From an uncultured Moorellales bacterium (GTDB lineage Bacteria; Bacillota; DULZ01): DNA of 26,412 bases. Below, piece after piece: positions 1,349-20,204 of this stretch. Position numbers and translations under genes: made by a program. Location: the NCBI GenBank assembly GCA_964500905.1, contig CAZCQT010000001.1, positions 1 through 26,412 on the forward strand. The letters run 5' to 3'. Position 1 is the stretch's first letter. Every line of letters begins with the position of its first letter. The notes beneath the pieces are model-generated. The model saw only the letters and a list, made by a program, of their open reading frames with translations. It was not told where the DNA came from and did no database searches.

Positions 1349-3103
1349 ATGATAGAAAAAACCCGTCACAATTTAAATTACGATGTAACCAGCACCTCAA
1401 AAATTAAATTTAATTTTAATAAATTAGTATATTCGCTATTGATAAGCTGGACTATACTGCTTGTTCTTTTTTTAGGTTGGAATTGGACTCAAATTAGTGA
1501 CGGCATTTATAAAGAAGCAGTAATAGCCTTACGAATGGCCTCCGATAATGATCTTTCCTTTCGGGCATGGGCTACGGATCATGGAGGCGTTTATGTTCCC
1601 ATTATACCCGGAACAGAGCCTAACTCTTTTCTTTCTCACCTGGATAATCGCGATATTACCACTACAAAAGGCATGAACCTTACCTTACTTAACCCTGCAT
1701 ATATTATGCGGCAAGCCTACCAGGTAAGATTAGACAACACAGGAGTCCGCAACAGATTGACCAGTCTGGACCCCATAAACCCAGTCAACACACCGGATTC
1801 CTGGGAAAAAGAAGCTTTATTGATGATAAAAAATGATAGTAGTATTGAAGAGGTTCATGCCATAACCGATTTTAATCAAGTACCCTCTATAAGACTGATA
1901 AAACCTTTTTATGTTGAGGAAGGGTGTCTAAAATGCCATGCACACCAAGGCTATCAAATTGGAGATTTACGTGGGGCCATTAGTGCAACAACACCTTTGG
2001 AACCATATAACTCCCTGATACATGCTCGAAGCTTTTCACTTTTACCTGGTTATGGGCTGATCTGGATTGTTGGATTAATTGGTATTTACTTAGCCGTTTC
2101 ACGTATTCAAGCATCATCCTCAGCACTGAAGGACAGGGAGGCTCGAAGCAGAGCCATGCTTCAAGCCATACCAGATATGTTTTGTCGTTATAGTGTAGAT
2201 GGAAGGTATTTAGATATTGAAATTAAAGAAAATTTTCCTGCCTACGAATTGATACTGGAAAAGGTTAAAAATAATAAGTTTATTGGACAAGATGTTGCTT
2301 CTGTTTTACCGATAGAAAATGCTAAAAAAATAATAGGAGCAATTAAAGATGCTGTTTCTACAGGTGAAATGCAAATAGTTGAACACAACTGCACAACCCA
2401 GCAAAAACAATTTTATTTCGAGGAACGTTTGGTTTTAGTATCTGAAAAGGAAGTCATTTCTATAATTAGGGATATAACTGAGCAGAAAAATTCTGAGTTA
2501 AAATTGGAATATCTAAGTTACCACGACTCCTTAACCAGGTTACACAACAGATACTATTTTGAAAGGGAACTAAAAAGATTTGAGATAAGTGAAGAATATC
2601 CAATTAGCATTGCTTCTATTGATGTAAATGGACTTAAACTAATCAATGATACCTTGGGGCATGTTGCCGGGGATTCTCTATTGGTAAACTGTGCAAAAGT
2701 GTTAAGACAATCCCTACGAGTTTCGGACGTATTAGCCCGAGTGGGAGGGGATGAATTTGTGGCGATTCTGCCCAACACAAATGAGCAAGTCTGTCAACAA
2801 ATTATCCAAAGGATTAGGGACAATGTACAAGAACAAAATAAAAAAACCCCTTCATTGCCCCTTAGCCTGTCCATAGGGATAGCCACAGCAATTTCGGATT
2901 CCGAAAACTTAATGTTTATCTACAAAAGGGCCGATGACGCCATGTTTAAAGAAAAACGAAAAAGTAGTGTCAGGGAAAACAACAATATCATAAGATCCTT
3001 GCTGGCATCTCTCGGAAAAAATGAGGACAATTTGTGGCTACCAACAAAAGAGGCAATATCACCTGCCGACATATCAACAACAGAAAAAGATGGTAACCCT
3101 TAG
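1349..3103 (+). CDS. Membrane diguanylate cyclase: TM, DUF3365 (Tll0287-like) heme c sensor, TM, PAS, GGDEF
   Basis: GGGGAGAG RBS. Two TM helices flank a domain with 'LLNPAYIMRQ', 'RLTSLDPINPVNTPDSWE' and CxxCH 'CLKCH'. PAS start 'AMLQAIPDMF'. 'HDSLTRLHNR', intact GGDEF, and I-site RxxD (RVSD). Confidence 0.9.
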   Translation: MIEKTRHNLNYDVTSTSKIKFNFNKLVYSLLISWTILLVLFLGWNWTQISDGIYKEAVIALRMASDNDLSFRAWATDHGGVYVPIIPGTEPNSFLSHLDNRDITTTKGMNLTLLNPAYIMRQAYQVRLDNTGVRNRLTSLDPINPVNTPDSWEKEALLMIKNDSSIEEVHAITDFNQVPSIRLIKPFYVEEGCLKCHAHQGYQIGDLRGAISATTPLEPYNSLIHARSFSLLPGYGLIWIVGLIGIYLAVSRIQASSSALKDREARSRAMLQAIPDMFCRYSVDGRYLDIEIKENFPAYELILEKVKNNKFIGQDVASVLPIENAKKIIGAIKDAVSTGEMQIVEHNCTTQQKQFYFEERLVLVSEKEVISIIRDITEQKNSELKLEYLSYHDSLTRLHNRYYFERELKRFEISEEYPISIASIDVNGLKLINDTLGHVAGDSLLVNCAKVLRQSLRVSDVLARVGGDEFVAILPNTNEQVCQQIIQRIRDNVQEQNKKTPSLPLSLSIGIATAISDSENLMFIYKRADDAMFKEKRKSSVRENNNIIRSLLASLGKNEDNLWLPTKEAISPADISTTEKDGNP

Positions 3104-3113
3104 TTTCCTTGAT

Positions 3114-6100
3114 TTATTGACTGCCTGTTCTTAGAATTTTTTCAATTTCCGAGGCAGGCATTGGCTTGTAATATAAATAGCCTTGAGCCTCATCGCACAT
3201 TTTTTGATTAAGAAATTCCAGTTGAGTGTTAGTTTCTACCCCTTCCGCCAACACCTCAAGACCAAGGCTTTTTGCTAATTTGATAATAATTTTTGTAATA
3301 GCCTGATCCTTTTCACTACCCTCTATGCCCTGCACGAATTGCATATCAATTTTTATACGATCAATTGGCAGCATTTTTAACCGATTAAGGGATGAATACT
3401 CTGTGCCAAAATCATCAATAGAGATTGACACCCCTAGTTTTTTTAATTTATTCAGTGTATCTACTGTGAAACCGGCCTCTTTTGTAGCAATACTTTCAGT
3501 AATCTCCAACTCAAGGTATTTTGAATCCAGACCAGTTTCCTGAAGTAATTGCTCTACCATTTTCACAAAACGTGGATTGCTAAATTGTATAACAGATAAA
3601 TTAACCGCCATTCGCAAAGGAATCAAACCCTGATCCTGCCACCTTTTATTCTGATTGATGGCTGTTTTTAGAACCCATTCCCCTATGCTATTGATCAAAC
3701 CATTGTTTTCCGCCAAAGGGATAAAAACCGCCGGCGGTATCATTCCCATTTCAGGGTGCTGCCAACGTAGCAGAGCCTCCAAGCCTATAATTTTACCTGT
3801 TTGCATCTTGACTTGAGGTTGATAATAAACAGCTAATTCACCTCGCTCCAAAGCCCTGTAAAGATTATTAGAAAGCATAATATTTCTCCTGACTTCTTCT
3901 TTCATCACAGCAGTGCATAATACATATTGGTTTTTACCTTTGGATTTAGCTTTATACATTGCAATCTCTGCATTCTTAATCAAGGTTTCCGTGTCCTCAC
4001 CATCAATTGGGTAAACCGCAACACCGGCACTGGCTGTGATATAAAATTCCTGACCATTTAAATCAAAGGGTTTTGTAAAGATCCCCATAATATCATCAGA
4101 AACCGTAATAATATCCTCGGGGTTCCCTATATTATTAAGCATAATTAAAAACTCATCTCCACCAAACCTTGACACTGTATCTGTTTTACGTAAACGATCC
4201 ACCAAACCTTGAGCGACCTCTTTAATAATGGTATCCCCGGCACCATGCCCCATGGTATCGTTAATAGACTTAAAACTATCTAAATCCATCAATAAAACCC
4301 CAATAAGCTTTTCAGTCCTTTTAGCCAAATTAATGGCCTGAGTCAGTCTGTCAGAAAACAAAATGCGATTCGGCAGAGTAGTCAAAACATCATAATAGGC
4401 CATAAATTCAATTTCTTTTTCGGATTTCATTTTTATAAAGCCGTTAGCCAACAGATTGGATAAGATATCCAACAACTCAAAGCTTTTTGGGTACCAATGT
4501 TTAGTGGAAGCAACGGTATCTAAACCAATAAAACCAATCAAATCGCCATTTTCTTCGATGGGAAACATTACTACGGTTTTATTATCTAATCGATTGAGTA
4601 GGGCTATTTCCTCCCTGGCTTCGTCGGGCAATTTTTTCACATCTTCAATATAAATTGGTTGTTTGCCTTGAAATTGCTGTACCCACCATGGGAATCTATC
4701 CTTGGGTATTTCTCCGTTGATACTCGTTTGATAATAGATGTCTGCTTTGCACCATTCATAACCATAGGACAGGGTCTGCTTTTCGTCGTTGATTAAAACA
4801 ATGTAGGCCCGATCCACATCAAAAAAGTTACCTATCTTTTCTAGGGCACTATTAATTTTATCATCGCTGCTGGCTTGGCTGACACTAACAAAATCAAATG
4901 ATACTTCGGAAACAAGCTTTTGAAAATTAGCTTGGTAGATGTTCTCTCTTAGCCTTCTAAGGTAAATTTTATTAATGGCCGAACCCATCCAAAAAGCTAT
5001 CAAAAACATACCTATACGCAATAGATAATCCAAATTGTGAGCATTAAGCGGTTCCTGGGCTGTTATTTGCCACAATAGAACCTGGGTAGCGACTATAACG
5101 GCGGTCATGATGATTAGAGGAAGTCTCGTGTTAAAAACAAGGGAAGCTATCATTAAAATAATGGGTAAGGCCCAAACCATGGTTGCCGCTGCTGTTTTAA
5201 TAAATATCAACATAACTATCGGTATGGAGGAAACCAAAGTTGACATGATCAGCAGGTCTTTAACCCTTTTATTTTTAACTAGCTGAAGAGCCAATATTAA
5301 GGCACCTATAATAAATAAGATGCCGCTGGCGAACAAAAAACCACCCGGCGATTCTCCGCCACGATCCATTCGCGAGAAAAAGTAGGATGTAAAACTAATA
5401 CTGCTGGCAGCCAAAAATGTAACTGCTATATGATAGTATAATATCGCCCGAGTTTTTACGCTTAGGATCAAAGTTTTATTCTCATCCTCAACTATTTCTA
5501 CCATTAGGCCATAACGCTTCATGGAATAGTAAATTGCGGTAATGGGAATTAAAATAACCACGGGGGCCATCTGAGGAAGAGGGATTGGCAAATACGAAAC
5601 CAAGATGACATCAGTAAGACTGCCTAGAATCAGAGCCATTAGCATAGAGTTAAAGATCAACTTTGACTGCCTTTGAACACTTAATTCGGAAGAGCTTTTT
5701 CGCCAAAGACCTATAATTACTAAGGAAGAAAGCATATAAGTTCCATAATAGATATAGAAAAAAATATCCAGTCCATTCTTGACCGATATATTGATCCATC
5801 CATAATCCATTCTTATTAAATTATATTGGGCTGCTGTTAAGGTCGGGGAAAGAGCAAAGGCATAAACAGCTATTACAGCAGGAAGGTATAATAAGCAGAT
5901 AAAAATTCTTTTACTGATTATTTTATTTTTATTTGTAAGCACTAAAAAGAAATGCAACAAAAAAGCATACATGCTTCCCCAGCCAACAGCCGAAACCCTT
6001 CGCCAAAACAAGGCCGACTCTAAATTTTGTGCTGAGTTGGCAATTGAAAAACCGAAGGCCCAAAAAACCAGGGAAATGCTAATTGCAAAAAACAATTTAT

Positions 6101-6209
6101 TAACCGTAGCTGTGGGGTTTCGATAGATAATGTACGCCCCAAAAAACATATACATTGTAAAAACAGCGAAAAACATCAGTGAAAAAAACAGGGCAAAATC
6201 CATCGGCAT
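3114..6209 (-). CDS. Membrane c-di-GMP cyclase/phosphodiesterase: multi-TM N-terminus (HisKA_7TM-like), GAF, GGDEF, EAL
   Basis: AAGGGGG RBS. About 12 hydrophobic segments, then a GAF-like region. 'YDVLTTLPNR', GGDEF with RKTD I-site, EAL ('GLEALLRW'), 'ELEITES', 'IDDFGTEYSSL', 'KID', 'AEGVE'. Confidence 0.93.
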   Translation of the reverse strand: MPMDFALFFSLMFFAVFTMYMFFGAYIIYRNPTATVNKLFFAISISLVFWAFGFSIANSAQNLESALFWRRVSAVGWGSMYAFLLHFFLVLTNKNKIISKRIFICLLYLPAVIAVYAFALSPTLTAAQYNLIRMDYGWINISVKNGLDIFFYIYYGTYMLSSLVIIGLWRKSSSELSVQRQSKLIFNSMLMALILGSLTDVILVSYLPIPLPQMAPVVILIPITAIYYSMKRYGLMVEIVEDENKTLILSVKTRAILYYHIAVTFLAASSISFTSYFFSRMDRGGESPGGFLFASGILFIIGALILALQLVKNKRVKDLLIMSTLVSSIPIVMLIFIKTAAATMVWALPIILMIASLVFNTRLPLIIMTAVIVATQVLLWQITAQEPLNAHNLDYLLRIGMFLIAFWMGSAINKIYLRRLRENIYQANFQKLVSEVSFDFVSVSQASSDDKINSALEKIGNFFDVDRAYIVLINDEKQTLSYGYEWCKADIYYQTSINGEIPKDRFPWWVQQFQGKQPIYIEDVKKLPDEAREEIALLNRLDNKTVVMFPIEENGDLIGFIGLDTVASTKHWYPKSFELLDILSNLLANGFIKMKSEKEIEFMAYYDVLTTLPNRILFSDRLTQAINLAKRTEKLIGVLLMDLDSFKSINDTMGHGAGDTIIKEVAQGLVDRLRKTDTVSRFGGDEFLIMLNNIGNPEDIITVSDDIMGIFTKPFDLNGQEFYITASAGVAVYPIDGEDTETLIKNAEIAMYKAKSKGKNQYVLCTAVMKEEVRRNIMLSNNLYRALERGELAVYYQPQVKMQTGKIIGLEALLRWQHPEMGMIPPAVFIPLAENNGLINSIGEWVLKTAINQNKRWQDQGLIPLRMAVNLSVIQFSNPRFVKMVEQLLQETGLDSKYLELEITESIATKEAGFTVDTLNKLKKLGVSISIDDFGTEYSSLNRLKMLPIDRIKIDMQFVQGIEGSEKDQAITKIIIKLAKSLGLEVLAEGVETNTQLEFLNQKMCDEAQGYLYYKPMPASEIEKILRTGSQ

Positions 6210-12707: not shown

Positions 12708-13568
12708 GTGCCGCAGTGGATAGAAATAATAATGCGTACACTGGCAGCCATAATTGCACTCTTTCTTTTAGCTAAACTGCTCAGCAAAAAACAACTGGGC
12801 AAGCTTTCCTATTTTGAATACATTACCGGCATTGCTGTCGGTGGTATTGCCTCTGCCATTTCAATCGGTATTTGGCCAAACTGGTATTTAGGCTTCATCT
12901 CCATGTCCGTTTGGATGGGAGTAGTTGTTGGGTTAGATTATCTTAGTTTAAAAAGTAAAATTGCCAGAGATTTTATTAAAGGCAAAGGTGAAATATTAAT
13001 TAAAGACGGCAAGGTTTTAGAAGATAATTTGACAAAGGCCCGTTATACCGCTGACAACCTATTAGAGAGTTTAAGAGCAAAAAACGCCTTTGAATTTGCA
13101 GATGTTGAATTTGCAGTTTTGGAAGCGGGCGGTGAATTAAATGTTTTGCTCAAAAGAGAAAATCAACCCCTTACCTCAAAAAATTTAGGCATAAAAACAG
13201 CTAATGAGCAGGAACCACAAACTGTGATCATTGATGGTAAAATTATGGATGAACCCCTTGCCACCCTAGGCCTAAGCCGGGGTTGGCTATCAACAGAGCT
13301 TGAAAAAATAGGAGCTTCTGTTGAGAATGTCTTTATCGGACAAGTAGACACCTATGGTCAACTTAAAATAGATTGTTTTGATGATAAACTGCTGCTTCCT
13401 GAACCACAAGAAAAAGCCCAACTACTGGCAACACTTAAAAAATGTGAGGCGGATATTGAAATGTTTGGTCTGAGTAGCAAAAACAAAAATGTCAAAAAGC
13501 TGTATGGAAATTGCTCTGAAGAATTACAGGAAGTTATTGCGGCTGTACAGCCTATATTAAGCAAGTAG
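12708..13568 (+). CDS. DUF421 (YetF-like) membrane protein with C-terminal DUF1657 domain ('2Duf'-type)
   Basis: GTG start after AAGGTGG. Three N-terminal TMs, 'GKLSYFEYITGIAVGGIA', 'DVEFAVLEAGGELNVL', 'QVDTYGQL'. The C-terminal helix is visibly homologous to the neighbouring DUF1657 protein. Confidence 0.9.
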   Translation: MPQWIEIIMRTLAAIIALFLLAKLLSKKQLGKLSYFEYITGIAVGGIASAISIGIWPNWYLGFISMSVWMGVVVGLDYLSLKSKIARDFIKGKGEILIKDGKVLEDNLTKARYTADNLLESLRAKNAFEFADVEFAVLEAGGELNVLLKRENQPLTSKNLGIKTANEQEPQTVIIDGKIMDEPLATLGLSRGWLSTELEKIGASVENVFIGQVDTYGQLKIDCFDDKLLLPEPQEKAQLLATLKKCEADIEMFGLSSKNKNVKKLYGNCSEELQEVIAAVQPILSK

Positions 13569-15607: not shown

Positions 15608-16033
15608 TTGAAAAGGGTAACACTGTTTTTAGGTGTCTTGTTTTTAGTAATTGTGTTTGGTGCCGGTGCAGCTGTTCGCCTGACCGAAAGTGCAGAGTTT
15701 TGCGGTTCCTGCCATATCATGAATGCCCACTATGAAACATGGGCCCACTCTTCTCATCGGGAGGAAACCAATTGCAATTCTTGCCATGTTCCCGAGGGCC
15801 TAATTGAAAAGCCCTTATACAAAGCAAAATCCGGTTTAATTGATGCTTATGTTTTTTTTATCAAGGGTTCTCCAGCCCATATTGAATTAAAGACCGACAG
15901 CCAAACAATAATTCAAGATAACTGTGTTAAATGCCACAGCACCTTCGTTAGGGAAATAACTAAGGGCGATGGGTTAAATTGCTACCATTGCCACCACTCG
16001 CCCCACGGAAAAGTTAAAAACTTGGTTTACTAA
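15608..16033 (+). CDS. nrfH: Tetraheme membrane-anchored menaquinol dehydrogenase (NapC/NirT family)
   Basis: N-terminal TM and four CxxCH motifs (CGSCH, CNSCH, CVKCH, CYHCH). Heme 1 has CxxCHxM. Directly upstream of nrfA. Confidence 0.93.
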   Translation: MKRVTLFLGVLFLVIVFGAGAAVRLTESAEFCGSCHIMNAHYETWAHSSHREETNCNSCHVPEGLIEKPLYKAKSGLIDAYVFFIKGSPAHIELKTDSQTIIQDNCVKCHSTFVREITKGDGLNCYHCHHSPHGKVKNLVY

Positions 16034-16055
16034 TAAACTGATAGTAGGTGATCCG

Positions 16056-17315
16056 GTGAATAAAAAGATAATTGCCCTGGCAGGTATAGTTCTAATAGCT
16101 GCCGTTATAGGTATAGGTGCCTATCAAGCTGGTATGAAGGCCGGCAAACCTCAATTGCCTCCCCACACGGTAGTCCTGAATCCTAAAGAAACAAGCAATG
16201 AGGTTTTTGGCCAATATTATCCCCGAGAATACGAAAGTTATTTAAAAAATTATGATATGAGCCAAGGACCAAGCGTTTATGGAGGATCTCACGAAAAAAG
16301 CAACTTGGATGTATATCCTTATATGAAGGTTCTTTGGAAGGGCTATGGTTTTGCAGAAGAATACCTGGAAGATCGAGGTCATGTTTACGCCATTGAAGAT
16401 GTAAAAAAGACTAAAAGAAATCCCCCCAGAGCTGTCTGTTGGGTTTGTAAAAGCACAGAAATTCCGCAAACCATTGAAGAAATGGGAGACGCATTTTACA
16501 GCATGCCTTTTAAAGAAGCAGCTGAACGATTTGTCAACCCCATTGGTTGTAGCGATTGCCACGATCCTGAAACTATGAGCCTGAGAATTACGCGGCCTGC
16601 CTTGGTTGAAGCTTTGGAAGAACAAGGGATAAATATAGCAAAGGCCAGCCTGCAAGAAATGCGCTCCTATGTATGTGCCCAATGCCATGTGGAATATTAT
16701 TTTGAAACAGATAATTTTATACCTGTTTTTCCGTGGAAAAACGGTATGGATCCAGAGGATGTATATGAGTATTATCAAGAAATTGACTTTGCCGATTTTA
16801 CACATCCCGATGCGGGTACAAAGCTTTTAAAAGGCCAACATCCTGATTTTGAGATGTTTACTGATGGCCCCCATCAATCCCGAGGGGTATCCTGTGCAGA
16901 CTGTCATATGCCCTATGTAGTAGAGGGCAACACGAAGATATCATCCCATTGGTGGACCAGCCCTTTAAAACAGATGGAAAATTCCTGTGGTGTCTGCCAT
17001 CGCGGCAATATGGATGATTTGCGAGATAGAGTTCTTTATACCCAGGACAGAAATAAGGATTTATTGGATCGGGCTGGACAAGCCAATGTAGAAGCGGTCA
17101 ATGCGATTGCCGCCGCCGGTGAATCGGCAAATGTTGATGAAAAGCTACTGGAGGAAGCCCGAGCCCTACATAGAGAGGGTCAGTGGTATTGGGATTGGGT
17201 CAGTGCAGAAAATAGTATGGGATTTCACAACCCACAAAAGGCGATGAACACCCTGGGAAAATCTATAGATCTTGCAAGTAAGGCCAGAGATTTAGCCAAA
17301 GAGGCTGCCAGATAA
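16056..17315 (+). CDS. nrfA: Pentaheme cytochrome c nitrite reductase (ammonia-forming)
   Basis: CWVCK active-site motif plus CSDCH, CAQCH, CADCH and CGVCH. Catalytic Arg ('DRGH'), Tyr ('CHVEYY') and His ('KGQH'). C-terminal 'AENSMGFHNP'. Confidence 0.96.
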   Translation: MNKKIIALAGIVLIAAVIGIGAYQAGMKAGKPQLPPHTVVLNPKETSNEVFGQYYPREYESYLKNYDMSQGPSVYGGSHEKSNLDVYPYMKVLWKGYGFAEEYLEDRGHVYAIEDVKKTKRNPPRAVCWVCKSTEIPQTIEEMGDAFYSMPFKEAAERFVNPIGCSDCHDPETMSLRITRPALVEALEEQGINIAKASLQEMRSYVCAQCHVEYYFETDNFIPVFPWKNGMDPEDVYEYYQEIDFADFTHPDAGTKLLKGQHPDFEMFTDGPHQSRGVSCADCHMPYVVEGNTKISSHWWTSPLKQMENSCGVCHRGNMDDLRDRVLYTQDRNKDLLDRAGQANVEAVNAIAAAGESANVDEKLLEEARALHREGQWYWDWVSAENSMGFHNPQKAMNTLGKSIDLASKARDLAKEAAR

Positions 17316-17401
17316 TTAAGCCGAGAAAACATTCTTTATCCGTTTGGTTTAACAGCTCTTGTTTTTGAGCAATCTGATCACAGCCTCTTGGCACTATATT
17401 A

Positions 17402-19147
17402 TTAAACTTTAAATTTATTAATCATTTCCGAAGTTTCTTTGGCCACTTTCTCTAAGGAAAGGACTGCCTCTTCAATTTCCCCCATTGAAGCCAATTGTTC
17501 TCTAATCGAGTTGGAGAAAGCATCAGCTGTTTGTGCAGTTTGTGTACCAAACCTTGAAACCTCATTAATAGAGGCAGATATTTCTTCACTGGCCGCACTT
17601 TGCTGCTGTGAAGCAGCACTTATACCCTGAATATTGCTGCCAATCTGCTCTATCCTTTGAATAATGGATTTAATCATTTTTTGGGCTTCTTCAACCTCTT
17701 TTTTACTATGATTAACTGCCTCCCCTGATTCTTGCAAATGGTTGTTTGCAGTTTGTGTTTTATCTGCAAGCTCCTTAATAATCTGAGAAATTTCCTTAGC
17801 AGATTGGGAGGAGTGCTCAGCTAAACCTCTTACTTCCTCTGCGACTACCGCAAACCCCCTACCTGCTTCCCCTGCTCTTTGGGATTCAATAGCTGCATTT
17901 AAAGCTAACATATTTGTTTGAGATGCAATATCATTAATATTACTTACAAAGTTAGTTATCTTGTTAATGGATTCCTTCAGCAATTCAAATACTGTTTCCA
18001 GCTCACTAACTTTATCATGTACATGACTGACCGAGGATACAACCCTATCCATACTGCTACCGGATTCCATTGCCTCTTTAGTCACTTCTTCACTTTCCTC
18101 GAAGGATTCCTGAGTCAAGATAGATATATGAGTAGCACTATTGGCAACCTCTTCCGAACTATGTTTAATTTCTACAAGGTTTTCAGCCAAGGTGGCAGAT
18201 ATACTTACAAGCTCATTTACTTGAGCAGAATTATTAGCCAACACCTGTCTTGTATGCACTATACCTGCAGATATATCAACGGCGGCTTTTTCTAAATCAT
18301 TAGATGAAGCATTAATTTGAGTAAACATTTTTCTTAAATATAATAAAAACGCATTAAATTGGGCTGCTATTTTACCAATGATATCTTCAGATCTAGCCAC
18401 CAATTGATATGTCAGATCACCTTCACCGGAGTTCATATCCTTTAATTGTTTATTAATTTCATTTAAAGGTTTGTTAATCACTCGCCTTGACACAATCCAC
18501 ATAAAGGCCCCCAATAAAACAATAATCAAGCCCCCTGCTAAAAATACGAAGGTGGACATCAATCTTGATTGAGCTATTAAGTCATCCAAAGAAGTCATCA
18601 TACTAAAAACACCGTGAATACCCCCCACAGAGCCGACATGGCAGCCTAGGCAATATTCATCCAATTTGATAGGCATGACATATCTTAAGTATGTACCATT
18701 TTGATCCTCAAGTACCTCATAGCCCTCCAGCAGGTTTTCATCAGCTTTAAACCCTTCTATTACACTTGTTTCCCATTCATCAGCACTATTTTCCTTGTTT
18801 TTAGGACTTTCCGCACTTATCCGCACACTGGTGTTTTCTGCTTTCATTTTATCGGAAAAACTTCGAACAGTGGCAATTGCTTCATACATACCAATGCTGG
18901 CGGCATTGTAGGAGTTAATATTGGTCTGACGCAAAATGTGTTGATGGGTACTTTCCATGTTACCCCAAATGGAATCTAATTGAATAGCAACGCTTCTCAG
19001 CCTGCTAACTTCCTGCTCCATAGGCAGCTCGTTTAAATAGTTAATAATTAAAGCAGATCCGATAAATGTAGAAATAAGAAGAACCAAAACAAAAGGAATT
19101 AATAATTTAACCAATAAGCTTTTTTCCAGAATTTTTTTTAGTTGCAT
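17402..19147 (-). CDS. Methyl-accepting chemotaxis protein with a heme c (DUF3365-like) extracellular sensor domain
   Basis: Likely start ATG 19147 after GAGGTGGGGG. TM1, sensor with '[19 protein letters not shown]', 'LRYVMPI' and 'CLGCH', TM2, HAMP, and signalling tip '[38 protein letters not shown]'. Confidence 0.93.
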
Positions 19148-19172
19148 TTCCCCCACCTCACATCTGTAAAAA

Positions 19173-20204
19173 TTAGTGTATGATGCTTGCCCCTTCAATG
19201 TTCTTTCCTGTTAACGCCTTGTAAGACTGTTGCAATAATTGTGCGGTAAAAAACGGGTTATGGATACCTTTACTTCCATCGTGGTTTATTAAGGTGTAAT
19301 TATAAACCGCTAAATATATTTCTTTTGGAACATTTTCAAAAGGGTTACCCTCTTTATCGTAAAATACAAAAGCTCCTCTGGCAGTTTCAAAGTAACCACC
19401 CTCCAAGCTCTGATTAATTGCTTGCAGCAAAATATTCATCAAACCCAAAACTTCGTCTTGCATCCCTTCAACTACACCATCGCCATCATAATCCTCATTG
19501 GCTTTGATATTGAAATCTACTACATCATCATGGCAGGCACCGCAGATTAATTCTGCATTTTTTGCCTCCATTGCAAAGCTGTGGCTGCGAAAACCCTTGT
19601 CCAGCCTGGGCATATGACAGTCTACGCAGGAGTTATCCAAGCTAATATGACCAAAGGTATTGTTGTATTGCAGCTCCTCATTTAATTTAATACCTCCGGT
19701 GCCGGTTAAAATATCCCCTTGGGAACCATAATGAGGTTCAGACCAACCGGGATCATAAATGTTAGGGTTTACCCTACTGTTGTGACAGCTCATACATAAC
19801 GCTCCTGCCCCTGAGATAGAATTTTCTTTCGTTGGTATACTGATTATTCCGGCTTGTTTTAATTCACCCCCAAAGCCTTGATGGCATGTAAAACAATTTT
19901 GTCCTGCGGATATATGTAAATCTTCGGACTGAACCAGCTGTTGACTAAAAGCCTCCCCGTCATGACAAAGAACACACCCATCCCTGCCTATGGTAGCCGC
20001 TACCGGATTTGCATGAGCTGATTCAGACCATTGCTTAAATATTTGATCTGAAGATGAAATTAATGAAAAGTCTTTAGCAGCACCGATTTTTGGTAAATTA
20101 TCTCCTTTCTTAAATTCCAGCTCCCTAACCAGACTACTAGTACATCCCTGGAATAAAACAACAGCAACTATAATAGCTAAAAATATCACTATGTACCTTT
20201 TCAT
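19173..20204 (-). CDS. Pentaheme cytochrome c, probable lipoprotein, NrfA/c552-like architecture without the CxxCK motif
   Basis: Likely start ATG 20204. Signal [20 protein letters not shown]|C. Motifs CVLCH, CFTCH, CMSCH, CVDCH and CGACH, a DYDGDG motif, and C-terminal 'DGSKGIHNP'. Confidence 0.88.

Follow-up and report, generated by a model that had tools for sequence, protein, structure and literature searches.

A pentaheme lipoprotein cytochrome encoded with a heme c chemoreceptor in uncultured Bacillota

Sensors that hold heme c in an extracytoplasmic Cache domain make up a large, recently recognized family whose stimulus in vivo and whose source of redox input are at issue. A stretch of 26,412 nucleotides (nt) from an uncultured Moorellales bacterium (contig CAZCQT010000001.1, positions 1 to 26,412; the window) raises this question in a concrete form. 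On its minus strand, a gene for a pentaheme lipoprotein cytochrome c (343 residues; 19173..20204, with ATG at 20204 and TAA at 19175-19173) lies directly upstream of a gene for a methyl-accepting chemotaxis protein (MCP; 581 residues; 17402..19147, with ATG at 19147 and stop at 17402) that is composed of a first transmembrane (TM) segment, an sCache_heme domain, a second TM segment, a HAMP domain, and an MCP signaling domain. Does the cytochrome serve the receptor, as the original prediction made from this sequence had proposed, or does it only share its neighborhood? The two genes were found paired in all lineages of the cytochrome clade, and we tentatively favor, at a probability of roughly 45%, a reading in which the lipid-anchored cytochrome exchanges electrons with the receptor heme, so that the operon would provide chemotaxis with an extracytoplasmic heme sensor made of two proteins. 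That the genes are paired is a robust and unexpected result; the mechanism is one that we infer, and the clade has few members, all of its observed carriers being uncultured.

Conservation of the gene pair

Relatives of the cytochrome were collected by a word-indexed search, from 185,579 species-representative genomes, and from JGI and ENA metagenomes. Close relatives are rare: the word-indexed search returned 12 in all, of which ten have 50-99% identity. The clade that contains the window protein was divided into lineages, defined as clusters at 90% identity, which gave 14 lineages that are 48-100% identical to it. In every one of the 14, an ortholog of the Tll0287-type MCP is the next gene on the same strand, 4-25 nt downstream of the cytochrome and preceded by a GGAGG-type ribosome-binding site (RBS). 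An arrangement found in 14 of 14 lineages cannot be put down to chance. The original prediction had named rare co-occurrence in other genomes as an outcome that would speak against it, and the opposite is observed.

The carriers are uncultured Bacillota, Clostridia, and Syntrophomonadaceae, including "Syntrophomonas sp. DTU018," and, judged by the names of the metagenome-assembled genomes (MAGs) and samples, they come from anaerobic digesters, bioreactors, and landfill. The contig index has no entry for the exact cytochrome of the window. JGI sample 3300028603, from which a relative with 79% identity also comes, contains a fragment that is 100% identical to the window pair.

The genes that surround the pair differ between nearly all lineages whose flanks are readable. 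The 79% relative is flanked by nrfHA and spoVA genes and a GyrI-like gene, the 59% relative by comEC and an mreB-like gene, the 53% relative by a cytochrome b/ferredoxin cluster and a metallo-beta-lactamase-fold gene, and the 50-51% relatives by an MR_MLE gene with either feoAB or a gene for an SLH protein. Adjacency to nrfHA, the genes of the NrfHA nitrite reductase, is confined to the window and the 79% relative (loci L001, L002, and L014), that is, to two lineages. When neighborhoods with and without nrfHA are compared, as the original prediction had called for, the pair is therefore constant and nrfHA is not, and nrfHA was rejected as a part of the module. Since nrfHA is not conserved with the pair, the proposed steering toward nitrite through a link to nrfHA does not hold as a property of the module.

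Within the window, the two genes are separated by 25 nt (19148..19172, minus strand), which contain the receptor RBS, GAGGTGGGGG, at 19150-19159. A terminator-like site was searched for in this gap, and none was found. On the strength of the short gap, the RBS, and this result, the cytochrome and receptor genes are very probably co-transcribed as one unit. The sequence features on which the original prediction had been built (the 25-nt gap, the RBS, no hairpin between the genes, extracytoplasmic CxxCH motifs, and 86 nt to nrfHA) are each present, and its proposal of a single operon is strengthened by the finding that the receptor gene stays within 25 nt of the cytochrome gene in all lineages while the flanks vary.

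The association with the receptor is a property of this clade. Among homologs with no more than 45% identity (∼150 loci from many phyla), the receptor is never adjacent where the contig is long enough. A neighbor-joining tree unites the receptor-linked cytochromes in a single clade, to which orphan five-heme lipoproteins from other Firmicutes form the sister groups. Eighteen positions, among them K116, K126, D195, and D250, are invariant in the linked clade yet different in the orphan paralogs; these are candidate contact residues or parts of a partner-specific surface. Pairwise identities of the cytochromes and of the sensor domains are correlated with r = 0.97 (55 pairs), a value that inheritance as a unit would predict and that is no proof of interaction. 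In the reverse direction, the sensor clade was found in the same genomes as the cytochrome, with a single exception that is weighed below.

The cytochrome and its relation to NrfA

The cytochrome has a signal peptide and lipobox (20142..20204, minus strand) that form its sole N-terminal hydrophobic segment, which ends in VLFQG-C at Cys C21; orthologs with a complete N terminus have LSGC, AMGC, or FSGC lipoboxes. There are exactly five CxxCH motifs, all on the minus strand, and C21 is the only Cys outside them. Motifs 1 (CVLCH, residues 77-81, 19962..19976) and 2 (CFTCH, residues 104-108, 19881..19895) are invariant in 10 orthologs and in 27 family members. Motifs 3 (CMSCH, residues 137-141, 19782..19796), 4 (CVDCH, followed by MP, residues 193-197, 19614..19628), and 5 (CGACH, residues 221-225, 19530..19544) align with NrfA heme 3, heme 4 (CADCHMP), and heme 5, respectively.

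Outside these motifs, exactly five His residues (H64, H158, H186, H208, and H315) are invariant in the receptor-linked clade, and the same five are almost universal among the 27 family members, which range from Firmicutes to Thermus and Ignavibacteria. Because these five additional conserved His amount to one per heme, we infer that all five hemes are bis-His-ligated and low-spin.

Relationship to NrfA was seen with several methods. In Pfam, the protein matched Cytochrome_C7 (50 bits) and, partially, Cytochrom_C552 (PF02335; 30 bits, profile positions 240-371 of 438). Searched against the PDB, a profile built from the clade matched the NrfA structures 8bcx (E value 8e-8), 6v0a, and 3ubr, and also 6i5b (E value 1e-3, residues 52-278). 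Alignment with hhalign to the NrfA of the window placed hemes 3-5 of the cytochrome on hemes 3-5 of NrfA, the CxxCHMP sequence included, and the C-terminal helices align as well. The same alignment paired a His eight residues before heme 4 and a His after heme 4 with NrfA and placed H186 on a conserved His in the NrfA sequence GPHQS, which we take to be a distal heme ligand. In the PDB profile comparison, the C-terminal GxHNP of the cytochrome was matched in NrfA as well. In all, three conserved non-motif His, in GH, SH, and HNP contexts, align between the two proteins, which also share the number of five c-type hemes.

The cytochrome differs from NrfA in the elements of the active site. A CxxCK motif was sought and is absent. 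The His of the NrfA sequence QHPDFE, upstream of heme 4, which we assume to be catalytic, has no counterpart in the hhalign alignment, where the segment opposite is a His-free stretch. The cytochrome is also ∼80 residues shorter than NrfA, is encoded with a receptor, and has a lipoprotein anchor in place of an NrfH partner. In NCBIfam, the NrfA models gave no match, the NrfB equivalog NF008659 scored 22 bits against a cut-off of 184, and no curated family covers the protein. The cytochrome as a second NrfA was therefore ruled out by the missing CxxCK and catalytic His; the true NrfHA encoded next door is a clearly different protein. Judged from these comparisons, the cytochrome is likely a noncatalytic relative within the superfamily that shares the NrfA/OcwA heme core. 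With all motifs of the CxxCH type, five further His, and neither CxxCK nor a counterpart of the catalytic His, it looks like a wire and not an enzyme, a protein for electron transfer that keeps the heme core of NrfA and has lost the active site.

PDB entry 6i5b is OcwA, the nonaheme cell-surface reductase of Thermincola potens, in which two of the nine hemes are pentacoordinate and of the catalytic type. Like the window protein, OcwA is an extracytoplasmic multiheme cytochrome of a Gram-positive organism and belongs to the same NrfA-related superfamily, although the profile match between them is weak; it differs in its nine hemes, in being a terminal reductase for extracellular acceptors, and in having no known link to a receptor. 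A paralog of the window cytochrome is present in Thermincola ferriacetica.

The wider family of the cytochrome is unnamed and comprises 1491 representative clusters at E ≤1e-3 and 99 at ≤1e-30. Its members are either stand-alone proteins of ∼330-370 residues or modules in multiheme cytochromes of up to 1946 residues, some of them encoded in clusters that resemble those for extracellular electron transfer (EET). In an Ignavibacteria MAG (L030, 3589-11360), a distant family member is clustered with a four-heme and a nine-heme cytochrome, the latter with a type IX secretion system (T9SS) sorting domain; the cluster adjoins a gene for a HAMP histidine kinase with one CxxCH and a 465-residue open reading frame (ORF) for its putative response regulator, which gives a further instance of a sensor with a heme motif in the neighborhood of cytochromes. 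Residues 237-242 of the window cytochrome (19479-19496, minus strand) form an invariant D-Y-D-G-[DN]-G that is followed by QDE and resembles a calcium-binding loop. This motif is kept in most Firmicutes members of the family, orphan paralogs included.

The heme c sensor and what may feed it

The extracytoplasmic domain of the receptor, an sCache_heme (Tll0287/DUF3365; Pfam PF11845) domain, spans residues ∼37-196 (18560..19039, minus strand), and the PF11845 match itself covers residues 44-170 with 53 bits against a cut-off of 24.1; the same annotation is precomputed for all orthologous receptors. Hydropathy analysis places hydrophobic segments at residues ∼5-39 and 193-225, with a single CxxCH in the intervening loop, and this motif is assigned to the extracytoplasmic side, where heme c has to be attached, because it lies between two TM segments. 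The motif, CLGCH (residues 166-170, 18638..18652, minus strand), is invariant at C166, C169, and H170 in nine orthologs. A weak Pfam match to HAMP is followed by the MCP signaling domain (PF00015, 146.9 bits, residues 352-532, 17552..18094, minus strand), which carries the canonical MCP hairpin-tip sequence.

Under a recent redefinition, the Tll0287/DUF3365 family is called sCache_heme and comprises Cache domains into which a CxxCH-bearing helix is inserted between beta3 and beta4, and the CxxCH is conserved in 99% of the family, which is reported to be rare in Bacillota. Members fused to signaling domains ("cluster 2") act as heme-based sensors, and the window receptor has this architecture, with its sensor fused to TM helices and to a signaling output (HAMP and MCP signaling domains after TM2). 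In the sensor domain, M64, M87, M101, and M158 are invariant in the nine orthologs, and there is no Cys outside the CxxCH. The sensor heme is therefore not ligated by Cys and His as in Tll0287, and the invariant Met residues could serve as displaceable distal heme ligands. A profile of the sensor found no relative among PDB sequences, including 3B47 and 5B82. In searches of protein databases, the sensor alignment retrieved one fragment and the periplasmic domain alone retrieved nothing; the distant sCache_heme receptors were not reached.

The window encodes a second sCache_heme protein (1349-3103, plus strand), which has a Tll0287-like domain (61.7 bits) with a CLKCH motif and a GGDEF domain and is a putative heme c-sensing diguanylate cyclase, noteworthy in view of the reported scarcity of the family in Bacillota. 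A PDB sequence search with this sCache_heme domain found no relative. The adjoining gene (3114-6209, minus strand) encodes a 1031-residue cyclic di-GMP protein with seven TM segments and GAF, GGDEF, and EAL domains, and the left part of the window is rich in signaling genes. In a MAG of T. ferriacetica (L024, 8001-13538), a five-heme lipoprotein that is 37% identical to the window cytochrome is followed on the same strand by genes for a response regulator, a histidine kinase, and a Tll0287-GGDEF protein; the latter lies 3.3 kb downstream of the cytochrome paralog, and its sensor is of the type orthologous to that of the window GGDEF protein. This may represent another form of association between such cytochromes and sCache_heme. 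When all ORFs of the fetched loci were searched with an iterated profile, no sCache_heme domain was found beyond those of the receptors and these GGDEF proteins. A general link between the cytochrome family and sCache_heme was considered and dropped, because the single further case, T. ferriacetica, is too little to claim one.

On the relay reading that we favor, the cytochrome would be tethered to the outer face of the cytoplasmic membrane, beside the receptor, where its five presumably bis-His hemes would make it a conduit for electrons. Electron exchange would couple the Fe(II)/Fe(III) state of the sensor heme to a redox pool that the receptor cannot reach alone; candidate pools are the respiratory chain, soluble shuttles, minerals, and partner cells. 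As documented for GSU0582 and GSU0935 of Geobacter, the axial ligation of the sensor heme would change with its redox state; passed on through TM2 and HAMP to CheA/CheW, this change would bias swimming, and the cell would thus carry out redox (energy) taxis with a cytochrome dedicated to the input. The idea of a dedicated relay, which was part of the original prediction, is in keeping with the character of the cytochrome, namely its uniform CxxCH motifs, its five extra His, and its lack of CxxCK and of the catalytic His. A more specific version, which we regard as rather unlikely, is a "wired" chemoreceptor in which the pentaheme protein links the outside (minerals, humics and other shuttles, or the surface cytochromes of a syntrophic partner) to the receptor heme. 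If true, such a receptor would permit taxis directly on extracellular redox potential, independently of metabolism, and it would give Syntrophomonadaceae-like anaerobes a means of finding electron-accepting partners or surfaces.

Several points weigh against the relay. Contact and electron transfer between the cytochrome and the receptor are predictions, and the AlphaFold2 models of the cytochrome (10-sequence alignment; mean predicted local distance difference test (pLDDT) score, 46) and of the sensor (two sequences; pLDDT, 43) were of too low confidence to bear on them. The bis-His assignment is a count of conserved His and not a structure. Neither an electron donor nor an electron acceptor for the cytochrome is encoded in the operon, and the orphan paralogs imply that cytochromes of this type have functions independent of a receptor. 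The receptor, in turn, can apparently persist alone: in the Syntrophomonadaceae MAG AS23ysBPME_226 (L100, 5620-6053; L099, 2-1591), it has no upstream cytochrome. The receptor gene of this MAG is preceded by an unrelated gene and its terminator, and only the final ∼20 nt of the usual junction (AAATAGCTCGGAGGG...ATG) remain, as though the cytochrome had been lost secondarily, unless the arrangement is an artefact of assembly. Finally, the only biochemically characterized signaling sCache_heme protein outside Geobacter, that of Pseudomonas azotoformans, binds NO tightly, which favors ligand sensing.

This last point leads to a reading in which the receptor is a gas sensor for NO, and perhaps CO, that binds NO when its heme is ferrous, and the cytochrome keeps or returns this heme to Fe(II) outside the cell or reductively strips bound NO for reset, so that the cell would respond to NO or nitrosative stress and not to redox potential as such. 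The P. azotoformans domain binds NO with low off-rates and autoxidizes quickly, and GSU0582 and GSU0935 bind both NO and CO; the invariant Met residues, in a receptor with no Cys beyond the CxxCH, are suitable candidates for a displaceable ligand, and a conserved pairing suits an accessory reductase as well as it does a relay. In the window and its closest relative the pair also adjoins nrfHA, whose nitrite chemistry is linked to NO, but nrfHA is not adjacent in the other lineages with readable flanks, and no NO-related genes recur beside the pair. Digesters, bioreactors, and landfill are not obviously NO-rich, and a five-heme protein is elaborate for one-electron maintenance. We consider gas sensing improbable on balance, though it deserves to be kept in view.

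Slightly less probable still is that the two proteins are co-regulated and act independently, the cytochrome as a part of respiratory or extracellular electron transfer and the receptor as a sensor of the matching condition, with the operon serving only for their joint production. Many operons join a catabolic enzyme to an MCP in a comparable way, the wider cytochrome family is mostly receptor-free and often fused in large multiheme cytochromes or placed in EET-like clusters, and both the orphan paralogs in Firmicutes and the one receptor lineage without a cytochrome would be expected. Co-regulation alone, however, rarely keeps two genes strictly adjacent, 4-25 nt apart and amid shuffled flanks, in every one of a set of lineages whose identity falls as low as 48%; moreover, the operon has neither a quinol dehydrogenase nor a terminal reductase, and the linked cytochromes form a distinct clade with its 18 clade-specific invariant residues. 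A further proposal is that the cytochrome is an enzyme like NrfA, a reductase of nitrite, hydroxylamine, sulfite, or NO, and that the receptor detects its substrate or product. This proposal draws on the relationship to NrfA and OcwA over hemes 3-5 and the C-terminal helices, and OcwA-type proteins do keep catalytic hemes. Yet the cytochrome has no CxxCK and no counterpart of the presumed catalytic His of NrfA, its five extra conserved His suffice for six-coordination of all hemes, its Pfam match is restricted to one part of the NrfA profile, and the NCBIfam NrfA and NrfB models fall far below their cut-offs. We regard an enzymatic role as very improbable.

The closest known counterparts of the receptor are GSU0582 and GSU0935 of Geobacter sulfurreducens, which have the same order of TM segment, periplasmic Tll0287-type domain with one CxxCH, TM segment, HAMP, and MCP signaling domain. 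They switch between a high-spin oxidized and a Met-ligated low-spin reduced form, at -156 and -251 mV, and have been proposed to signal through the redox-linked change of the distal ligand (Met60). They differ from the window receptor in their diderm Desulfobacterota host, and no dedicated cytochrome partner is named for them in the Geobacter review; the window sensor is too divergent from both for a profile match to their PDB sequences. The Cache_heme-HAMP (CHH) protein of P. azotoformans is likewise an extracytoplasmic sCache_heme sensor whose function requires a conserved partner encoded next to it. That partner, a cytoplasmic Ser/Thr kinase from the same operon, belongs to the output side, and the species sensed is NO, whereas in the window a multiheme cytochrome outside the cytoplasm takes the input side and the receptor has a normal MCP domain for its output.

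Two other systems are only loose functional precedents. TorC of Escherichia coli resembles the window protein in being a pentaheme c-type cytochrome with a membrane anchor, and it acts directly on the transmembrane sensor TorS from the periplasmic side. It belongs to the NapC/NirT family, however, and it is apo-TorC that inhibits the histidine kinase, as quality control; TorS has no heme, and no electron transfer is involved. In the congregation of Shewanella oneidensis, taxis to electron acceptors genetically requires multiheme cytochromes (MtrBC/OmcA and CymA) and the Cache MCP SO_2240, but the genes are unlinked, SO_2240 lacks heme, and the coupling is considered indirect, via energy status and not via a dedicated partner.

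Taken singly, the sCache_heme MCP and the multiheme cytochrome of the NrfA-related superfamily are of familiar types. No description of a pair like theirs was found in the searchable literature, and the original prediction had likewise known of no characterized one; two 2026 preprints on sCache_heme mention no multiheme partner, one of them reporting the cytoplasmic Ser/Thr kinase as a conserved partner. With a cytochrome partner that is strictly conserved, the question of what feeds an extracytoplasmic heme sensor can be put to a defined pair of proteins, and the pair occurs in Bacillota, where the family is reportedly scarce. If the relay is true, we know of no earlier case in which a dedicated cytochrome supplies the input of a chemotaxis receptor. 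In uncultured anaerobes of digesters and landfill, motility toward electron sinks or partners could affect syntrophy.

Neighboring genes in the window

The convergent neighbor of the pair is nrfHA (15608..17315, plus strand), assigned with Pfam and NCBIfam, in which nrfH occupies 15608-16033 and nrfA occupies 16056-17315. NrfA of the window has a CxxCK motif and matches Cytochrom_C552 with 443 bits. Between the end of nrfA and the receptor stop are 86 nt (17316-17401). Promoter and terminator scans, and folding of this spacer, gave results no better than those for shuffled sequences, and neither strand of the spacer has a convincing terminator. Where the window has only the spacer, the 79% relative has a gene for a 145-residue Gmad2-domain protein (L001, 5771-6208) between the receptor gene and nrfA.

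Directly upstream of nrfHA in the window are spoVAC, spoVAD, and spoVAEB, which are compatible with a spore-forming host, and the linkage of spoVA genes to nrfHA is common to the window and the 79% relative. Directly upstream of spoVAC-spoVAD-spoVAEB, a single ORF (12708-13568, plus strand) combines a YetF C-terminal domain (DUF421) with DUF1657.

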